The notes: generated by a model not told the origin, from the letters alone. A DNA stretch of 64,000 bases from Oscillospiraceae bacterium (GCA_015069135.1 SVJE01000006.1:98753-162752); one strand, 5' to 3'; numbered from the stretch's first letter, positions 2,918 to 51,603 are shown. Numbers and translations are program-made.

Positions 2918-4159
2918 GTGAGGGCCGAAATTCTGTCAGTGGGCACTGAACTCCTTATGGGTCAGATAGCCAACACAGATGCTGAATATATATCAAAAAG
3001 ATTACCGGAGGTAGGAATCGGAGTATTCTACCACACCGTTGTGGGAGATAATCCCGGACGTTTGGAAGAATGTCTTAAACTGGCTCTCTCAAGAGCAGAT
3101 GTGGTTATAACTACAGGAGGCTTAGGACCTACTCAGGATGATCTTACTAAGGAAACCATAGCTAAAGTGTTGGGTTTGGCTATGGTGGAAGACGAGGAAA
3201 GTATTGGCGCTATAAGAGCTTTCTTTGAAAGAAGAGGCTCGGTTATGGCAAACAACAACTTAAGACAAGGTTGTTTCCCTGAGGGTGCGTTAATACTTAA
3301 AAATGATATGGGTACAGCTCCGGGGTGTGTAATAACCACAGGCGATTCCAAGTATGTTATTATGCTTCCGGGTCCACCAAAAGAGCTTAAACCTATGTTT
3401 GATAATGGGGTAATGCCTTTCTTAAAAGAAAAAGCTCAGAAACCTTTGGTGTCAAAATTTGTAAGAGTTACAGGCGTCGGTGAGTCTTCATTAGAAGAAA
3501 AAATAATGTCCCTTATAGATGGTCAGACAAACCCTACATTCGCAACTTATGCAAAAGACGGTAATGTTACTATAAGAGTTACTGCTTCTGATGAAGATGG
3601 TAACGGAAATCAGCTTCTTGAAGAGGCTGTTGGCAAAATAAAAGACATATTAGGTGATGCGGTATATTCCACTGAGGATGAAGAATTGGTGCAGGTTGTG
3701 CTTAATATGTTAAAAGAAAGAAATCTTGAGATAGCTTGTGCTGAGTCATGTACCGGAGGAAGTCTTGCAAAGCTTATTACTTCATGTCCCGGTTCCTCAG
3801 AAGTATTTCACACAGGTCTTGTTACCTACAGTGAAGACAGTAAAATGAAACTTCTGGGGGTTAAAAAGGAAACTCTTGATAAGTACACTGTTTACAGTGA
3901 GCAAGTGGCAGGGGAAATGGCAGAAGGCCTCCAAAAACTTACGGGAGCCCAGGTTTGTGTGGGTATTACAGGAGTAGCCGGTCCCGGTGGCGGAACTGAA
4001 CAAACTCCTGTTGGAACTGTGTTTATTGGTGTAAAATACAAGGAAAGACTTTCTGTTACGAAACATTGCTTTGCAGGAATGAGCCGTGACAGAGTAAGAA
4101 TATTAAGTGTTGTTAACAGTCTTAATAACATAAGAAAGGAAATGCTTAAAGATGGATGA
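2918..4159 (+). CDS. cinA: Competence/damage-inducible protein A (MoCF-like + PncC domains)
   Basis: AEILSVGTELLMGQIANTDA, TTGGLGPTQDDLTKE, LPGPPKEL and ACAESCTGG motifs. Confidence 0.95.
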   Translation: MRAEILSVGTELLMGQIANTDAEYISKRLPEVGIGVFYHTVVGDNPGRLEECLKLALSRADVVITTGGLGPTQDDLTKETIAKVLGLAMVEDEESIGAIRAFFERRGSVMANNNLRQGCFPEGALILKNDMGTAPGCVITTGDSKYVIMLPGPPKELKPMFDNGVMPFLKEKAQKPLVSKFVRVTGVGESSLEEKIMSLIDGQTNPTFATYAKDGNVTIRVTASDEDGNGNQLLEEAVGKIKDILGDAVYSTEDEELVQVVLNMLKERNLEIACAESCTGGSLAKLITSCPGSSEVFHTGLVTYSEDSKMKLLGVKKETLDKYTVYSEQVAGEMAEGLQKLTGAQVCVGITGVAGPGGGTEQTPVGTVFIGVKYKERLSVTKHCFAGMSRDRVRILSVVNSLNNIRKEMLKDG

Positions 4160-4928
4160 AGAAAAAATAATAGAGGAGATTTCTGTAAAGGAAAATACAG
4201 AAAGAAAGAAAAATAAATATAAGAATATTCTATCCTGGGTGGCAACTATTCTGGCGGCATTTGTTGTTGCGTTACTTATCAATACATATGTATTCAGAAC
4301 CAGTATGATATATGGTTCTTCCATGTATCCTACATTGGAAAACGGACAGGTTGTTACACTTTCCAAGCTCCCCTATTTTTTTTCTGAGCCTGAGTTTGGA
4401 GATGTTATAGTTCTGGATTCAGAAAGTGTATATTATACCTGTAATGCCTGCGGAACCCATACCGGCTTATTAGAAGCAGGTCCTACATGTCATCAGTGGG
4501 ATAAAGCCAAGGGCACTGTATGTAATGATGTGTTTGACGAAAAAGACAAGTATAAGGATCCGGGCTTTTTTGGTAATCTTGCCCTGTCTCTTAAATACAA
4601 TGTGATAAGTCAGAAATTATTTGGTGTTGATAACCAACAGGAACGTTTCTGGATTAAACGTGTTATAGGAGTAGCAGGGGATACTATTGAGTTTAAAGAG
4701 AATACATTTTACCTTAATGGTGAAGAAATAGAAGAAAGTTATGTAAATACTGAAATATCACCTCAGTACGATAATGTGTATCACAATGCATATGTTAACG
4801 CTTCACTTACAGTACCTGACGGTTATGTTTTTGTGATGGGTGACAACAGAGGTGCCAGCAAAGATAGTCGCCTTATGGGTGTAGTACCTATTTCAGCAAT
4901 TATAGGAAAAGTAACTTCAGGGGTGTAA
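4152..4928 (+). CDS. lepB: Signal peptidase I with Cys/His-containing insertion
   Basis: N-terminal TM segment, GSSMYPTL (Ser), WIKRVIG (Lys), FVMGDNRGASKDSR. Confidence 0.92.
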   Translation: MDEEKIIEEISVKENTERKKNKYKNILSWVATILAAFVVALLINTYVFRTSMIYGSSMYPTLENGQVVTLSKLPYFFSEPEFGDVIVLDSESVYYTCNACGTHTGLLEAGPTCHQWDKAKGTVCNDVFDEKDKYKDPGFFGNLALSLKYNVISQKLFGVDNQQERFWIKRVIGVAGDTIEFKENTFYLNGEEIEESYVNTEISPQYDNVYHNAYVNASLTVPDGYVFVMGDNRGASKDSRLMGVVPISAIIGKVTSGV

Positions 4929-4930
4929 TT

Positions 4931-5542
4931 ATGTACATAATAGCTGCAACACATAACAAGAATAAATTAAGAGAATTTGGTGAGATTTTTGGCTGCCCGG
5001 TTCATTCAGCATCAGCTCTTGGTGCCTGTTCTGATCCTGAAGAAACAGGTATTACTTTCAGTGAAAATTCCAAAATCAAGGCAACAGCTATATATGATGA
5101 ACTTATGGAAGTGGGAAATTTACCTGAAGGTGATTTCTGGGTAATAGCTGATGACTCAGGTCTTTGTGTAGATGCCTTAGACGGTGCCCCAGGTGTGTAT
5201 TCTGCAAGATATGCAAGTACAGACGGACACAATGCAACGGATGAAGAAAATGTGGAAAAACTTCTTAAAGACCTTGAAAACGTTCCGGAAGAAGAAAGAA
5301 AGGCTGCCTTTGTGTGTGCTATTACTGCTGTTAACCGACAGGGAGAGGTACATACTGCAGAAGGTTTTCTTAAGGGATATATTGCTTTTGAACCTGTTGG
5401 CAACGGAGGCTTTGGTTACGATCCTGTTATGTATATAAAAGAGAAGGCCAAGACCGTTGCAGAGATGACTCCGGATGAAAAAAATGCTATCAGCCACAGA
5501 GGTCAGGCTCTTAAAGTGCTTAAGGAGAAAATATGGTTCTGA
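4931..5542 (+). CDS. rdgB: Non-canonical purine NTP pyrophosphatase (RdgB/HAM1)
   Basis: ATHNKNKLRE, ADDSGLCVDALDGAPGVYSARY, GFGYDP and KNAISHRGQAL motifs. Confidence 0.95.
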   Translation: MYIIAATHNKNKLREFGEIFGCPVHSASALGACSDPEETGITFSENSKIKATAIYDELMEVGNLPEGDFWVIADDSGLCVDALDGAPGVYSARYASTDGHNATDEENVEKLLKDLENVPEEERKAAFVCAITAVNRQGEVHTAEGFLKGYIAFEPVGNGGFGYDPVMYIKEKAKTVAEMTPDEKNAISHRGQALKVLKEKIWF

Positions 5543-6684
5543 TACAAAAGTGTTCTACTTATGACAGAGAAGTTATATTAGAGAGAGTAAAAGAAATATT
5601 TGAAAAAAACGGTGGTATAGAAAAGTTTGCTTCTCCCGGTAAAAAGGTCGTTATTAAACCTAACTTGGTAAGCAAAAAGTCACCGGAAGCGGCTGCTACT
5701 ACCCATCCGTCTTTAGTATGGGCTGTAGCTACTTTGTGTAAAGAGGCCGGAGCCGATGTTGTTATTGCTGAAAGCTCCGGAGGACCTTATGAAAAACCTC
5801 TGATGAAAGCTTTATACAGAGCCACAGGTATTGAGCAGGCTGCTTTGGACAGTGGTGCTATACTTAACTATGACCTTACTGAAACAAAGGTGGATAATCC
5901 TGGGGCTAAGTATCTTAAGAGCCTTAATATAATAACCCCGGTGGCAGAAGCAGACACTGTAATAAGTCTTTCTAAACTAAAGACTCATGGCATGATGGTG
6001 TATACAGGTGCTGTCAAAAATCTTTTTGGTGTAATTGCAGGTCTTCAGAAGGCTGAATATCACATGAAAATGTCAGACTACGATGAATTTGCCGATTGCA
6101 TTATAGATATATTTTTATCTGCAAGGGTGTCCCTTAATATTATTGATGCGGTGGTAGGCATGGACAGAGACGGTCCTACTGCAGGCGATCCTAAGAAAAT
6201 GGATCTTCTTATATCTTCCACTGATGCTTTTGAGGCTGATATGACAGCTCTTGAAATTATAGGAGTTAAACCTGAAAGAGTACCTGTTTTTAAGAATGCT
6301 ATAAAAAGAGGTTTGGTGAAAGAGAATACAAAGGACTTTGATTTTGCAGGAGGATTGAAACCATCAGATGTTTTGGTGCCTGATTTCAAGGTAAAATATA
6401 ACGATCAGCTTAATAACCTATATTTTATTAAAGGTCCATTTGGCAAATGGTTTTCTAAGATAATAAGACCAAGACCGGTATTTCACAGAAATAAATGTAA
6501 AGCTTGCAGAGAATGTGAAAAATGTTGCCCTGCTAAAGTTATTACCGTAACTAAGGAAAAAGGTGCAAAGGTAAACTTGGATGGTTGTATCAGATGTTAT
6601 TGCTGCCAGGAACTTTGTCCTTTCAAAGCAGTAACTATAAAGAAACCGCTATTAAATAAGTTGTTTATAAGGAGTAAAAAATAA
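5533..6684 (+). CDS. DUF362 domain protein with C-terminal 2x[4Fe-4S] ferredoxin
   Basis: VVIKPNL, LSKLKTH, GAVKNLFG; CKACRECEKCCP and CIRCYCCQELCP. Confidence 0.9.
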   Translation: MVLIQKCSTYDREVILERVKEIFEKNGGIEKFASPGKKVVIKPNLVSKKSPEAAATTHPSLVWAVATLCKEAGADVVIAESSGGPYEKPLMKALYRATGIEQAALDSGAILNYDLTETKVDNPGAKYLKSLNIITPVAEADTVISLSKLKTHGMMVYTGAVKNLFGVIAGLQKAEYHMKMSDYDEFADCIIDIFLSARVSLNIIDAVVGMDRDGPTAGDPKKMDLLISSTDAFEADMTALEIIGVKPERVPVFKNAIKRGLVKENTKDFDFAGGLKPSDVLVPDFKVKYNDQLNNLYFIKGPFGKWFSKIIRPRPVFHRNKCKACRECEKCCPAKVITVTKEKGAKVNLDGCIRCYCCQELCPFKAVTIKKPLLNKLFIRSKK

Positions 6685-7190
6685 TGAATATAGTTTTGGT
6701 AGAGCCTGAGATTCCGCAGAATACAGGTAATATTGTAAGAACTTGTGCCGGATGTAACGCAAGATTGCATTTAATAAGACCTCTTGGTTTTTCTACAGAT
6801 GATAAATATCTTAAGAGGGCTGGTCTTGATTATTGGCATTTTGTTGATATAAATTATTATGATAGTTTTGAAGAATTGGTGGAAAAGGCAACTTCAGAAA
6901 ATAATGGAGTTAAACCTAATTTCTACTACGGCACTACAAAAGGTAAAAAACGTTATAGTGACATAACATATACCAATGATGATTATCTTGTTTTCGGTAA
7001 AGAAACAAAGGGGCTTCCGGAAAGCCTTTTAGCGGAGAATTATGACCATTGTATCCGCATTCCTATGAGGGAGGAATTCCGTTCCCTGAATCTTTCAAAT
7101 GCCGTGGCAATTGTTATTTTTGAGGCTATGCGTCAGTTAGGTTTCCCGGATATGGAAACAGAGGGCGCTTTAAGAGATTATGATATGTAA
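6684..7190 (+). CDS. trmL: tRNA (cytidine/uridine-34-2'-O)-methyltransferase
   Basis: LVEPEIPQNTGNIVRTC, KRAGLDYW, VFGKETKGLP and RSLNLSNAVAI motifs. Confidence 0.95.
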   Translation: MNIVLVEPEIPQNTGNIVRTCAGCNARLHLIRPLGFSTDDKYLKRAGLDYWHFVDINYYDSFEELVEKATSENNGVKPNFYYGTTKGKKRYSDITYTNDDYLVFGKETKGLPESLLAENYDHCIRIPMREEFRSLNLSNAVAIVIFEAMRQLGFPDMETEGALRDYDM

Positions 7191-41671: not shown

Positions 41672-42244
41672 ATGAGTTGGTATGTGGTATTTGTAAAAAC
41701 TGGACAAGAGAATAAAGCAGTAATGGATTTACGTTCAAAAGTGGACGAAGAGACAACGTTTCCTTTTGTGCCCATGAAAGAACTTCTTTTTAAAAAAAGA
41801 GGAGAAGTAAGAAAAGAAAAAGAAGTGCTTTTTCCTGGTTACATATTTGTGGAAACTGAAGAAACCAATGAAGCTTGTCCAATAAATTTATTTGATGCTG
41901 TAGTAAAGAGCCGACATTGTCATAGGATATTAAATTATGGTTCTTATGAAAATTCAGCTATGAACGAAATAGAGCAGGATTTATTGTGCTCCTTAATGGA
42001 TGAAGATGGGTTAATTGAATCAAGTGATGCTTTATTAGTAGGTGATAGAGTTATGGTGATTTCAGGGGCATTAAAGGGGTATGAAAACAGGATAGTATCT
42101 TATGACAGACATAAAAGAACAGCTGTTATAGAAGTAACTATGATGAATAAAAGCATACCTGTAACAGTTGCACTTAATACTCTTATTAAATTACCTGACG
42201 ACAAAAATAAATGCAGAAATGAGGATACTTATGAATTCATATGA
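41672..42244 (+). CDS. loaP: NusG-paralog antiterminator, LoaP-like
   Basis: WYVVFVKTGQE, FVP...KK.G...LFPGYIFVE (NGN domain) and a KOW domain GDRVMVISGALKG; embedded in a biosynthetic cluster. Confidence 0.75.
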   Translation: MSWYVVFVKTGQENKAVMDLRSKVDEETTFPFVPMKELLFKKRGEVRKEKEVLFPGYIFVETEETNEACPINLFDAVVKSRHCHRILNYGSYENSAMNEIEQDLLCSLMDEDGLIESSDALLVGDRVMVISGALKGYENRIVSYDRHKRTAVIEVTMMNKSIPVTVALNTLIKLPDDKNKCRNEDTYEFI

Positions 42245-47972: not shown

Positions 47973-49352
47973 ATGAAAGAAATACCAATGGATTGTCCTG
48001 TGTTTAAAATATTTTACTATAAAGACAATTATTTTTTATATGATACTTATACAAATAGTATATTTAAAATATTGAAATCACATTTTGAAGAATTATATTT
48101 ATTGCAAAATATAGGGATTTCTAATTATGTTAATCTTAATAAATCTACCAAGGAATATAATGATGTTTTACATTTAATTAACAAAGGAATGTTGAAATTT
48201 GGGTTTATTAAAAAAGTAGAACATCCTGAAACATGTAATATAAAATTCCTTCTTGACAGATGTGTAAATGATATTACTTTGCAAGTTACACGTGATTGCA
48301 ATTTTAAATGTCGATACTGTTTGTATGCAAATGATAGTAAAACAGAGAGAAATCATGAAGATATTAATATGTGTTGGGAAACAGCAAAAAAAACTATAGA
48401 TTTTTTGTATCAACATTCTATAGATGTTGATACTGTTAATATTTCTTTTTATGGTGGGGAACCGTTGCTCAACTTTGATTTGATTGTTAAAACAGTCAAT
48501 TATGCTAGTGAAAAATTACAGACTAAAAAAGTGCATTATAATATGACAATTAACGGTTCATTGTTAACGGACAATATTATTAATTTTTTAATATTGCACA
48601 ATTTTGATATTTCAATTAGCCTTGATGGACCCCAAAAAATACAAAATAATCATCGCAAGTTTCTTAGAACGGGTGGTGATACATATGATACGGTAATAAA
48701 AAAAATAAATAGTATAAGACGGTTAAGCGAATCATATTTTATGCAACATGTTTATTTTTTGCCAGTTTATTTAAATGATGAAAATTATCAAGAAGTATAT
48801 GACTTTTTTGAAAAGATTGGAGTAATGAAGGATAAAGTTACACCAATTAAAGCAAATTTAGGAGGCATGGATTATATCCTTAGTGAGTGGAAAATTCATA
48901 ATTTAAATAAAAAAAAGAATGGATTAATTAAGGGTTATACAGAAAATGAGATTTCTAAGATCAATAAGATAATAAATAATAAAAATTTACTTCCTCCGTG
49001 CTGGCATCATAACGGGCAATGTATCCCGGGTGTACAGCGTGTTTTTATAGATGTCTATGGAATTATGTACCCTTGTGAAAAAATCACAGAAAACAAGTCA
49101 TTTTCAATTGGCAATATACAAGAAGGTTTTGATGTTGAACGAATTATAAAGTTTCTTAATGTTGGCAAATTGACAGCAACTGAATGTAAAAAATGTTGGG
49201 CAATGAGATTTTGTGAAGGGTGTATATCTTTATGTAATGATATAGATTTATGTGATATAACACGAGATCGAAAACTGGTCTCGTGTGAAAAACAGAAAGA
49301 AAAAGCTCTATATGATATTAAATCCTTTATTGATAGAACTAGTAAGCTTTGA
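47973..49352 (+). CDS. Radical SAM/SPASM maturase, CcpM-like, with N-terminal RRE-like region
   Basis: TLQVTRDCNFKCRYC, FYGGEPLLN, CIPGVQRVFID..G..YPCEK and CKKCWAMRFCEGC resemble clostridial Cys-rich peptide maturases (recalled as TIGR04068; needs an HMM check). Confidence 0.8.
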   Translation: MKEIPMDCPVFKIFYYKDNYFLYDTYTNSIFKILKSHFEELYLLQNIGISNYVNLNKSTKEYNDVLHLINKGMLKFGFIKKVEHPETCNIKFLLDRCVNDITLQVTRDCNFKCRYCLYANDSKTERNHEDINMCWETAKKTIDFLYQHSIDVDTVNISFYGGEPLLNFDLIVKTVNYASEKLQTKKVHYNMTINGSLLTDNIINFLILHNFDISISLDGPQKIQNNHRKFLRTGGDTYDTVIKKINSIRRLSESYFMQHVYFLPVYLNDENYQEVYDFFEKIGVMKDKVTPIKANLGGMDYILSEWKIHNLNKKKNGLIKGYTENEISKINKIINNKNLLPPCWHHNGQCIPGVQRVFIDVYGIMYPCEKITENKSFSIGNIQEGFDVERIIKFLNVGKLTATECKKCWAMRFCEGCISLCNDIDLCDITRDRKLVSCEKQKEKALYDIKSFIDRTSKL

Positions 49353-49362
49353 GGTAATTAAT

Positions 49363-50289
49363 ATGTGTAAAATATTTTTATGTACAGATTCCTACGCATT
49401 AAGAACATTACATTGTTCTCTTGATTATGTTTTAAATGTAAAAGTTAAAGAAATAATTGTTTTAAAGGAAAATTATAAAAAAGATGAGGTGTGCAAAAGG
49501 CGTTCGGATATTAAAATTACTGTATATGACACGATATATGAATGTATCTTAAATAGCGAATGGACAATTATTGTTTCTAACTCAAATATACCAGCAAAAA
49601 CAATTGATTATATTAAACAGGTATCTCATAATATGAAAAAAGGATACTATTTTATTGAGAATCCTTGGAACTTGGAAAGTGAACTCAATGATAGACTTAT
49701 TTTTTCAATTAAAGGCTCAGAAGTTAGCACTTTGCCAATTATAGCTCAAGTATCTTTAGGAATTTTATCGCAACCTTATTTTACGGAAATTGCTTTAAAC
49801 AAAAAGTTTAGCAAAGAAAATATTAAAGTTCGACAAATTTTTACCGACGAAACTAATAGATTGTTAAATGAATTAAATAAATGTGAACTGTTAAATGGCT
49901 CGTTGTCGAATCAAATTGATAATCGTGTGAAGAATTTTGATATTTTATGCTACTCTATAAATGTTGGAAATGATATATATAGCATTAAGAATTATATTCA
50001 TTTATTCTCAAATTTAAAACCTGATTATTTAATTTTACAAACAGATTTTCGTTTTAATAATTATGATTTAGCAAACCAAATTGTAAAATACTGGTGTTTT
50101 TCTGATTTGGATATAATACTTAAGTCGCATTATACATTGTCAGACCAAAAATATAAGCTATATTGTGATGAGCAGTTATCTTTGAAAGAAAATGTATTAG
50201 ATATAGAATCAGCAGAAGTAGAAGAAAATCTGTTTCGTTCTATTTTTAATAAACTGTCTCTACCAAAGGGGATTTTTAGAATAAGCTAG
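49363..50289 (+). CDS. Peptide maturation system protein, TIGR04066-like (tentative)
   Basis: Follows the CcpM-like gene; LPII...G...EIAL...F..ENIKVRQI pattern; gaggt RBS before ATG 49363. Confidence 0.45.
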   Translation: MCKIFLCTDSYALRTLHCSLDYVLNVKVKEIIVLKENYKKDEVCKRRSDIKITVYDTIYECILNSEWTIIVSNSNIPAKTIDYIKQVSHNMKKGYYFIENPWNLESELNDRLIFSIKGSEVSTLPIIAQVSLGILSQPYFTEIALNKKFSKENIKVRQIFTDETNRLLNELNKCELLNGSLSNQIDNRVKNFDILCYSINVGNDIYSIKNYIHLFSNLKPDYLILQTDFRFNNYDLANQIVKYWCFSDLDIILKSHYTLSDQKYKLYCDEQLSLKENVLDIESAEVEENLFRSIFNKLSLPKGIFRIS

Positions 50290-50318
50290 AAATGTTAAAT
50301 TACTAGTAATAATTATCG

Positions 50319-50588
50319 GTAGTTAGAAAGTGCTGATGTAAAAGAGAAAAAACTAGGGAGGTGAAATAATGATATTTGAAAAAACAACGAGTTTTTCGGG
50401 TGCAACGCCTTTAGCAAAATGTTCTGGTTGCAGTAACAGTGGCGAGCAAGTATTTCAAACAAATTTATCAGGGTTTTTGGCACATAATGCTGGTAGATGT
50501 ACAACAAAAGGTTAATTTTATTTAAATTTATTTACTTATAATGATGTTTTAAGGAAGGATTCCTTTTACATTAGCACTTTCTAACTAC
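50319..50588. repeat. 26-bp inverted repeat pair enclosing a small ORF
   Basis: GTAGTTAGAAAGTGCTGATGTAAAAG (50319-50344) versus CTTTTACATTAGCACTTTCTAACTAC (50563-50588): 25/26 complementary, and the one mismatch is a G-U pair in RNA. Confidence 0.9.
50369..50515 (+). CDS. RiPP precursor peptide candidate 2 (48 aa, absent from the ORF track)
   Basis: GGGAGGTG RBS 7 nt before ATG; MIFEKTTSFSGATPLAKCSGCSNSGEQVFQTNLSGFLAHNAGRCTTKG; directly downstream of the CcpM-like module. Confidence 0.75.
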   Translation: MIFEKTTSFSGATPLAKCSGCSNSGEQVFQTNLSGFLAHNAGRCTTKG

Positions 50589-50793
50589 TGAATAATTAAA
50601 TGTGAAATATTGCACAAAATTATTATTGCTATATAAATATATTAAGTTACACATATTTTATGATGAGATAAATTTTTTCTTTAATCTTGCTTTTTAACTA
50701 TAAATTGATATATTCTGACTTGATTTTATGTAAAAATTGTTGTAATGTGTGAAGTGTTGATTAATAAGTAAAAGCTTTCTGGAGGGATATTAT

Positions 50794-51603
50794 ATGAAAA
50801 AAATACCGTTTGTGCATTTTATGGATTATTTATTCAAATATGATAAATCCATTCCGGGTGAAGTGTTACTCGATAATTACTGTGTATATAAAGAAAACTA
50901 TTTATCAGGGAAATCAAGTTCTGACTTTTATTATAAATCAGGCTTTGTAATTGACTTTTCCACATATATAAACAATGATGAATGTACAGTGTTCTGCTTT
51001 TTGCATCAGATTAATGATTTATGCGATATTGAAAGTGTACTTAATTCAGTGCGAGTATTAATTGATGAACAACAAAAAGTTTTTAGGGTGTCATATGAAA
51101 TATTTGCTTCTGTAAAAATGTCCATCGCTGAAAAATTTGTCGACAGTATCGAGATGTACAGATTCAAGCGTTATGGTATAAGTTATCGTTCTAGTTTCAA
51201 TATTCAAAAAATTAGCAATGAAGATATTGGTACAGTAAAGAGTGTGATTGCAGAAAAAATTGAAAATGATTCTCATTTTGGAAGAGTGATAGCAAAAGGA
51301 TTTATGGATTTTTGTTGTGACGATATTAACAAATTGATAGGGTGTTTTGAAGAAGATAAACTTTGTGGAATAGCCTCATATGCATTTTTTGAGGAAGCTG
51401 ATATGGCTGAATTATCAAGTATATATGTATTGCCTGAGTTTCGAAATATTGGTGTTGGAAAAGAATTAGTACTATCTGCTTTAAATGAATATCCTAATAA
51501 ACAATGGATATACCAGGCCGGAGCAAAAAATGAGATGTCAATTAGACTTGCCCAATCTACGGGGTTTAAGCTTTCCGGAGCGGCCTTATATATTCGTGTA
51601 TAA
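50794..51603 (+). CDS. GNAT-family N-acetyltransferase
   Basis: LSSIYVLPEFRNIGVGKELV (motif A) and NEMSIRLAQSTGF. Confidence 0.82.
   Translation: MKKIPFVHFMDYLFKYDKSIPGEVLLDNYCVYKENYLSGKSSSDFYYKSGFVIDFSTYINNDECTVFCFLHQINDLCDIESVLNSVRVLIDEQQKVFRVSYEIFASVKMSIAEKFVDSIEMYRFKRYGISYRSSFNIQKISNEDIGTVKSVIAEKIENDSHFGRVIAKGFMDFCCDDINKLIGCFEEDKLCGIASYAFFEEADMAELSSIYVLPEFRNIGVGKELVLSALNEYPNKQWIYQAGAKNEMSIRLAQSTGFKLSGAALYIRV

Follow-up and report, generated by a model that had tools for sequence, protein, structure and literature searches.

The 48-residue open reading frame (ORF) considered here is located distally in a series of genes that share one direction, in a 64-kb stretch of Oscillospiraceae DNA, the whole of which is referred to as the window. 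The series contains genes for an AraC-family regulator, an AMP-ligase, a carrier protein, a PaaK-like ligase, a radical SAM/SPASM enzyme, a 308-residue protein, the 48-residue ORF, and a GNAT-domain protein, placing the small ORF approximately 5 kb into the operon and behind five enzyme genes. The radical SAM enzyme is CcpM-like, scoring 360 bits against the CcpM model, which is under the 500-bit cut-off of that model. The features of the locus are collected in Table 1.

Table 1. Genes and RNA features around the small ORF, in window coordinates.
Feature	Position	Strand	Remarks
CcpM-like radical SAM/SPASM peptide maturase	47973..49352	+	anchor for finding related loci
Upstream 308-aa gene, no family match	49366..50289	+	start as called in public collection
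Left (5') arm of helix	50310..50348	+	core 50319-50344; mean core pair probability 0.99
Shine-Dalgarno GGGAGG	50356..50361	+	7 nt before ATG, in loop, outside helix
48-aa ORF MIFEK…CSGCSN…AGRC	50369..50515	+	presumed RiPP precursor
3' trailer, stop codon to right arm	50516..50559	+	44 nt
Right (3') arm of helix	50560..50598	+	core 50563-50588; 1-nt bulge at 50591
Downstream 269-aa gene, C-terminal GNAT domain	50794..51603	+	after AT-rich gap

The gene upstream of the small ORF has an alternative reading in the ORF listing, in which it encodes 334 residues from a GTG at 49285. The AlphaFold model of the 308-residue protein (pLDDT 84.8, pTM 0.86) has its best structural matches among DUF1611 proteins (2g0t, 2obn), the acetyltransferase DgcN (7xrj), and MurD ligases, with TM scores of 0.38-0.45 or lower, and the modeled fold suggests that the protein is probably a nucleotide-dependent biosynthetic enzyme. 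This protein was also considered as an RNA-binding or nuclease partner of the RNA stem described below, and was rejected in that role given its predicted DUF1611/MurD-like two-domain α/β fold; the structural matches of the model include no nuclease or RNA-binding fold.

A consensus scan of 49900-50900, from the upstream gene to the next gene, found no terminator-like sites. Promoter-like matches around the left arm are at background (11, compared with 8.0 ± 2.7 expected) and none adjoins the arm, although such a scan is uninformative in DNA this AT-rich. The downstream GNAT gene starts about 195-205 nt past the right arm. Elsewhere in the same assembly, contig 7 carries a gene for RNase III (PF14622, 141.8 bits, 249-residue open frame). 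A 190-residue NusG paralogue with a NusG N-terminal domain and a KOW domain is encoded in the window at 41672-42244, within the neighboring carrier-protein cluster and directly after a SAM synthetase gene; this protein may be a LoaP-like, cluster-specific antitermination factor.

The small ORF is bracketed by an inverted repeat. A repeat search of the window identifies arms of 29 nt at 50316-50344 and 50563-50591 that are 93 % complementary and have 218 nt between them. Within these arms, the 26-nt core forms 25 Watson-Crick pairs and one G·U pair in the sense RNA, and an imperfect match extends outward as TAATTAT and ATAATTA (50310-50316 and 50592-50598), all of which agrees with the original prediction, made from this DNA alone, of a 26-bp repeat matching at 25 of 26 positions with a G-U exception. 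Two further points of that prediction also hold, namely that the bracketed unit contains only the Shine-Dalgarno sequence, the 48-residue ORF, and a short trailer, and that the window sequence has no target-site duplication at the repeat. Folding of 50300-50610 by RNAfold, one of the checks it had proposed, closes a 38-bp helix with two 1-nt bulges (MFE of -81.7 kcal/mol, compared with -55.3 ± 4.9 kcal/mol for dinucleotide shuffles, z = -5.4). Twenty nucleotides separate the upstream stop codon from the left arm, and 7 nt separate the arm from the Shine-Dalgarno sequence, which is not sequestered, in keeping with the earlier expectation that the arm would not occlude it; the Shine-Dalgarno region has an unpaired probability of 0.41 in the partition-function fold.

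The bracket is the top-ranked spaced inverted repeat across the 64-kb window. The second-ranked repeat (24710/24993) lies in the other peptide cluster and was rejected as an AT-rich, low-complexity match in a coding region. A search of the window with the 27-mer arm (≤3 mismatches) returns this pair alone, where shuffles predict 0, and the 27-mer is found nowhere else in the 1.9-Mb assembly, indicating a single pair per genome. The exact arm pattern has 0 matches among metagenome contigs. An Rfam scan assigned the region to no family, its sole match being a chance hit to SNORD14 (20.3 bits compared with a gathering threshold of 64 bits, E = 0.46).

Comparison at the strain level gave no information, as the four independent metagenome contigs that encode the neighboring protein match the locus at 100 % identity, and a DNA search of 40 relatives for the locus found nothing. 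With the approximately 300-residue protein as an anchor, genome contigs yielded no relatives with either a single sequence or a profile, metagenome contigs yielded one locus, a word-indexed protein search returned the protein itself and one other, and a survey of 400 genomes of the class returned its own genome only. The related loci were gathered via the radical SAM protein, which has roughly 3,700 homologues; the neighborhoods of those that are 45-61 % identical to it led to eleven further distinct loci. The order of genes is the same in all of these (radical SAM gene, ~300-residue gene, small ORF, next gene), with the ~300-residue gene immediately 5' of the helix in every case and the gene after the small ORF usually encoding an ABC exporter. 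The small ORFs, with homologues in the 11 other loci, constitute one family with the pattern M-x-FEK … C-x-G-C-S-N … R-C, and in each of the 19 contigs examined the small ORF runs in the same direction as the operon.

An inverted repeat surrounds the small ORF in 12 of 12 distinct loci. The ungapped cores span 13-38 nt, with 19-38 nt in 11 loci and 13 nt in L030. No empty orthologous site was found, as all 12 loci are occupied at the same position. Two of the observations named in advance as refuting the prediction came out differently: the 26-mer does indeed occur nowhere else in the genome, while orthologous loci that lack the repeat were not encountered, all of them carrying it.

The related clusters vary in their surroundings, as noted for L013, L015, L018, and L027. 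Most have a nitroreductase-family gene first and an ABC exporter last, and several adjoin LytTR/histidine-kinase or AgrB genes, whereas the window cluster has neither a nitroreductase nor an adjacent exporter and has an AraC regulator instead. One related contig, L025, contains a resolvase-family gene (331-945) on the opposite strand approximately 5 kb upstream of the precursor, which is found at this locus only. In L022 the gene caller missed the 46-residue precursor ORF (6402-6542) because it had over-extended the ABC-exporter ORF across it, upstream to a TTG at 6409; the true start of the exporter is probably the ATG at 6626, past the right arm. The gene after the right arm in L020 (5763-5969) and the corresponding region of L024 (~6560-6870) resemble, by eye, the N-terminal half of the 269-residue GNAT protein of the window, for example in FIDY/FMDY near the start. 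Should this likeness between the sequences hold, a layout of precursor followed by a GNAT-type gene would be common to a sub-group, with the other loci having an ABC exporter.

Comparison of the arms indicates that pairing has been kept while sequence has changed. The arm sequences diverge across loci, with the left arms having a mean pairwise identity of 42 % and a minimum of 24 %. RNAduplex energies for the 5' and 3' flanks of the same locus are -25 to -65 kcal/mol across the 12 loci. The controls for these values were mononucleotide shuffles and the arms of other loci: shuffled 3' flanks give mean duplex energies of -13 to -25 kcal/mol, such that a locus's own flanks have z scores of -4 to -10, and the best flank borrowed from another locus gives -19 to -38 kcal/mol.

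The arms were also aligned, using 30 nt per arm in the register of each locus's own helix, with the left arms anchored on an RAAG motif and the two arms joined by an artificial linker; MAFFT left this alignment ungapped except for one base in L018. In total 82.2 % of the cells are paired, compared with 55.7 ± 2.0 % when the 3' arms are dealt among the loci (0/500), and the covariation score is 0.726 compared with 0.241 when shuffled (0/500), where covariation means that each arm matches its own partner and is not a blind test, the register having been taken from each row's own helix. Sliding the partner by 1-3 columns reduces pairing to 42-51 %. Changes are present on both sides in 27 of the 30 pairs, a count with which a separate tabulation of our own agrees, while three invariant central pairs (A-U, A-U, and G-C) are built in by the RAAG anchor. 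The arms of L020 and L024 are similar enough to be aligned with each other, and 7 positions differ as read by eye. Four of these 7 constitute two compensated pairs (C-G to A-U and U-A to C-G), and one changes A-U to G·U. The trailers beside the arms of these two loci are unalignable by eye.

The mismatches in the helix point to the strand on which pairing operates. The ungapped cores of the 12 loci contain 290 Watson-Crick pairs and 20 mismatches, of which 14 are G·U in the sense strand, 2 are G·U only in the antisense strand, and 4 are others (binomial test of 14 against 2, p = 0.004). Base composition cannot cause this bias, as every Watson-Crick pair can turn into either kind of mismatch by a single transition. 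A mutation spectrum that differs between the strands is the only process that could mimic it, and with a 2:1 spectrum p is about 0.06. In 9 of 12 loci the plus-strand duplex is more stable than its antisense counterpart, and in the other 3 the two are of about the same stability. The closing helix has a pair probability of 0.81-0.99 in all 12 partition-function folds. Spacing is also constrained, with a loop of 196-255 nt, 19-47 nt from the end of the left arm to the start codon (ungapped cores), and 18-69 nt from the stop codon to the right arm across the 12 loci, so that ribosomes initiating or terminating on the ORF would have footprints that stop just short of the stem. Pairing of the Shine-Dalgarno region varies among the folds (unpaired probability 0.22-0.60 across loci). 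Taken together, the maintenance of pairing through changed sequence in 12 loci, the bias toward G·U in the sense strand, and the ribosome-clearing spacing indicate that the bracket is very probably a selected sense-strand mRNA helix. The first of three options offered by the original prediction, a long-range 5'-3' mRNA helix, gains support from the same observations.

Most likely, this long-range mRNA stem, probably of the RNase III type, sets the peptide-precursor cistron apart within its operon. In the sense mRNA of a RiPP operon, the arms would be the two sides of a leader-trailer helix, one 5' and one 3' of the precursor; the operon has the order ligase, ACP, ligase, radical SAM enzyme, 308-residue gene, precursor, and next gene. 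Once RNA polymerase clears the right arm, a duplex of ~38 bp would shut around the precursor cistron, leaving the Shine-Dalgarno sequence, start codon, and stop codon in the loop, such that the ORF would be translatable with the stem closed. Host RNase III could then cut both strands of the duplex to produce a precursor mRNA of ~250 nt with its 5' and 3' ends still paired, and these paired ends would make the released mRNA a poor substrate for exonucleases acting from either end. Unprotected ends would be left on the enzyme and exporter segments to either side, and the outcome would be a high ratio of precursor to enzyme message despite the promoter-distal position of the gene. In this scheme we infer co-transcription of both arms, cleavage by RNase III, and the stabilizing outcome, and the full reading, that of an RNase III stem that both releases and stabilizes the precursor message, is judged to have slightly better than even chances of being correct.

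An RNase III stem is suggested by duplexes of 19-38 bp in 11 of 12 loci, the presence of an RNase III gene in the organism's own assembly, and the paired ends that a double cut would leave. As expected of an RNase III stem, near-continuous double-stranded RNA of at least about two helical turns flanks the RNA that would be released. In the window no intrinsic terminator lies between the upstream gene and the next gene, and only weak terminator-like hairpins are seen, in 2 of 12 loci, which fits transcription reading through both arms. In B. subtilis, RNase III is known to cut mRNA duplexes that arise from intramolecular pairing over >100 nt (PMC11780869). Against an RNase III step, the helices of L030 (13-14 bp) and of L021 and L025 (19-20 bp) are short for this enzyme, and the left arm starts 0-10 nt past the upstream stop codon in several loci, where terminating ribosomes would open the outer part of the arm. 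RNase III cleavage can also destabilize mRNA as well as stabilize it, which counts against the proposed outcome.

It is possible, though rather unlikely, that the same sense-strand helix is not cut and acts by clamping the precursor message at its UTRs; the RNA involved would be the polycistronic one or a primary transcript that starts at an internal promoter. An uncut clamp would block RNase J1, RNase Y, and 3' exonucleases and might bring the stop codon near the ribosome-binding site for re-initiation, and a precedent is found in the hbs mRNA of B. subtilis, where an interaction of the 5' and 3' UTRs limits ribonuclease attack (PMC5737220). Structure and comparison speak for a clamp just as they do for an RNase III stem, the arm-to-codon spacing of at least 18-19 nt leaves the stem compatible with translation, and the 13-20-bp helices of L030, L021, and L025 suit a clamp better than an RNase III substrate. 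However, no convincing promoter was found just upstream of the left arm in the scan, where matches are at the background level, and near-perfect duplexes of 23-38 bp are generally expected to be cut where RNase III is encoded. A related proposal is a dedicated "cistron clamp" of a family of radical-SAM peptide clusters, in which both ends are protected with or without a cut and ribosomes re-initiate on the ~250-nt message, as the helix would leave no more than a few tens of nucleotides between stop codon and ribosome-binding site. This proposal is regarded as quite unlikely; if true, it would represent a bacterial closed-loop mRNA that makes an operon-distal gene the most highly expressed.

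The helix could instead be a negative element, in which RNase III cleavage or the stem itself triggers decay of the precursor message, or uncouples or damps expression of the next gene downstream, for an exporter or an acetyltransferase. In 10 of 12 loci, 14-50 nt separate the right arm from the start codon that follows, a distance at which the stem could hinder 30S binding, and pairing of the 5' and 3' UTRs of S. aureus icaR promotes RNase III cleavage and represses translation (PMC3868564). A negative role is nevertheless decidedly improbable, as the Shine-Dalgarno sequence of the precursor lies outside the stem with the unpaired probabilities given above, and the helix is still kept where the next gene is about 195-205 nt (window) and 333 nt (L024) away. 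In addition, a RiPP precursor that comes last behind five enzyme genes would be expected to need more expression rather than less.

At the DNA level, the repeat could be an invertible segment, a MITE-like cassette that carries precursor genes from place to place, or a quasi-palindrome whose symmetry is maintained by template-switch repair and not by selection on RNA. Exchange between the arms, by recombination or template switching, is expected to change them in concert and thus to mimic compensation, and a resolvase gene lies 5 kb upstream in one related contig (L025). MITEs would be expected in multiple copies, with target-site duplications and with empty sites in relatives, yet the repeat is single copy in the genome, lacks a target-site duplication, and occupies the same place in 12 orthologous loci with no empty site. 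For an invertible segment, the orientation of the ORF would be expected to vary, but it is constant in 19 of 19 contigs, and no recombinase family was matched among the genes scanned with Pfam from 31327 to 52766. The mismatches are skewed 14:2 toward sense-strand G·U, and the spacing to start and stop codons reflects a constraint of translation, not of DNA. The MITE-like or invertible cassette, put forward as a second option in the original prediction, is thus very improbable, as are the other DNA-level elements. It is likewise very unlikely that the arms form an antiterminator/terminator switch akin to the 'zipper-type' attenuator of pLS20. Such a switch would use pairing with the left arm either to prevent or to form a terminator at the right arm and would thereby set downstream read-through. 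In the window (50552-50564) and in L018 (8555-8572) a weak terminator-like hairpin overlaps the right arm at its inner end, and 'zipper-type' attenuators with long-range complementarity have been described in Gram-positive plasmids (PMC13401043), but these two hairpins have 5-bp stems and poor U tracts, the other 10 loci have no terminator-like hairpin at this point, and the consensus scan of 49900-50900 found none. The third option of the prediction, paired operators, here taken as sites where a DNA-binding regulator would loop the DNA that holds the precursor gene, is extremely unlikely in spite of the AraC-family gene at the head of the window operon, since the arm sequences differ between orthologues as described above, other loci have LytTR/histidine-kinase or AgrB neighbors rather than AraC, arms of 26-38 bp are far longer than operators, and the strand-biased G·U pattern has no DNA explanation.

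The proposed RNase III stem has elements in common with several known systems. RNase III processes the leader-trailer stems around 16S and 23S rRNA and removes the ORF-carrying intervening sequences found in 23S rRNA. As in the rRNA stems, the flanks at the present locus pair into a long helix from which a double cut would release the enclosed unit; the enclosed unit, however, is a translated mRNA cistron in a biosynthetic operon rather than a stable RNA. In type I toxin mRNAs such as hok, fold-back between the 5' and 3' ends (fbi/tac) sequesters the translation signals of a small hydrophobic toxin, and an antisense RNA takes part in control. The analogy to such mRNAs that was drawn initially stands in part, in that the two ends of a small-ORF mRNA engage in long-range pairing, and fails in part, as the Shine-Dalgarno sequence is free here, the locus is not known to have an antisense RNA partner, and the peptide is not toxin-like, being hydrophilic, equipped with 3 conserved Cys residues, and tied to a radical SAM maturase rather than destined to be a membrane toxin.

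Stem-loops are also familiar from RiPP and bacteriocin clusters. The intergenic hairpins between the A and B genes of lasso-peptide clusters, and those of nisA and mccA, form locally, 3' of a precursor gene that lies near the promoter, and serve as leaky terminators or 3' stabilizers. Their presumed purpose, more precursor than enzyme message from one cluster, is the same as that proposed here. In contrast to these hairpins, no local terminator is present, the precursor gene lies far from the promoter, and the entire cistron is enclosed by the stem; a terminator or attenuator would be expected to have a local GC-rich hairpin and U tract 3' of the precursor, where weak 5-bp hairpins are seen in 2 of 12 loci. 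Among Firmicute mRNAs, there is a likeness to the long-range RNase III duplexes of B. subtilis (Taggart et al., NAR 2025, PMC11780869), in which sequences >100 nt apart pair into a duplex of a length that RNase III uses, compared with arms 196-255 nt apart and stems of 19-38 bp in 11 of 12 loci here. The B. subtilis sites were experimentally mapped and are not described in that paper as conserved cistron-bracketing stems, whereas cleavage in the present case is inferred and the stem, which a whole family of gene clusters has conserved, surrounds exactly one small cistron, complete with ribosome-binding site. In icaR (PMC3868564) and hbs (PMC5737220), sequences on either side of one ORF also pair and control access of ribonucleases. 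These messages are monocistronic and their interactions short, compared with a stem of 20-38 bp inside a polycistronic unit, and the 3' UTR of icaR pairs with the Shine-Dalgarno sequence to repress translation whereas the Shine-Dalgarno sequence is free here. A search of the open-access literature found no description of a stem that brackets the cistron of a RiPP precursor.

In RiPP pathways the substrate peptide is needed in far larger amounts than the enzymes, and the textbook ways of achieving this are to give the precursor gene a strong promoter of its own or to place it near the promoter with a leaky terminator behind it. Should the stem serve in processing or stabilization, it would constitute a third, RNA-level solution to the RiPP stoichiometry problem and a natural case in which a leader-trailer helix singles out a whole cistron of an operon transcript, in the manner of rRNA. 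Consequences for the study of these clusters would follow. A small ORF within a long inverted repeat beside a maturase gene could be used in genome mining to reveal precursors missed by gene callers, such as that of L022, and heterologous expression of such clusters may need both arms as well as a host RNase III.

The bracket has a limited distribution among CcpM-type systems. Two canonical CcpM clusters of other genomes (L045 and L046) contain no long-range repeat, indicating that the bracket is not general to TIGR04068 systems. In contrast to a long-range bracket, L046 has a local hairpin with a 17-nt stem and a 3-nt loop (5705-5741) immediately before the radical SAM gene. A distant CcpM-like cluster, L048, contains a perfect 13-bp repeat, ATAGAACAATGCA, at 2716-2728 and 3000-3012 that surrounds a different Cys-rich ORF of ~56 residues in the same relative position (score of 13, compared with a shuffle maximum of 8). 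On the cistron-clamp reading, this weaker, 13-bp version hints that the device is older and wider than the FEK…CxGCSN…RC family. A related 12/13 repeat in the paralogous cluster L047 (minus strand, ~4734-4973) is not significant alone. Both clusters belong to the same genome (G433), which thus has two CcpM-like clusters, each with a Cys-rich ORF of ~56-61 residues (KKxFKK…C…C) after a gene of ~365 residues.
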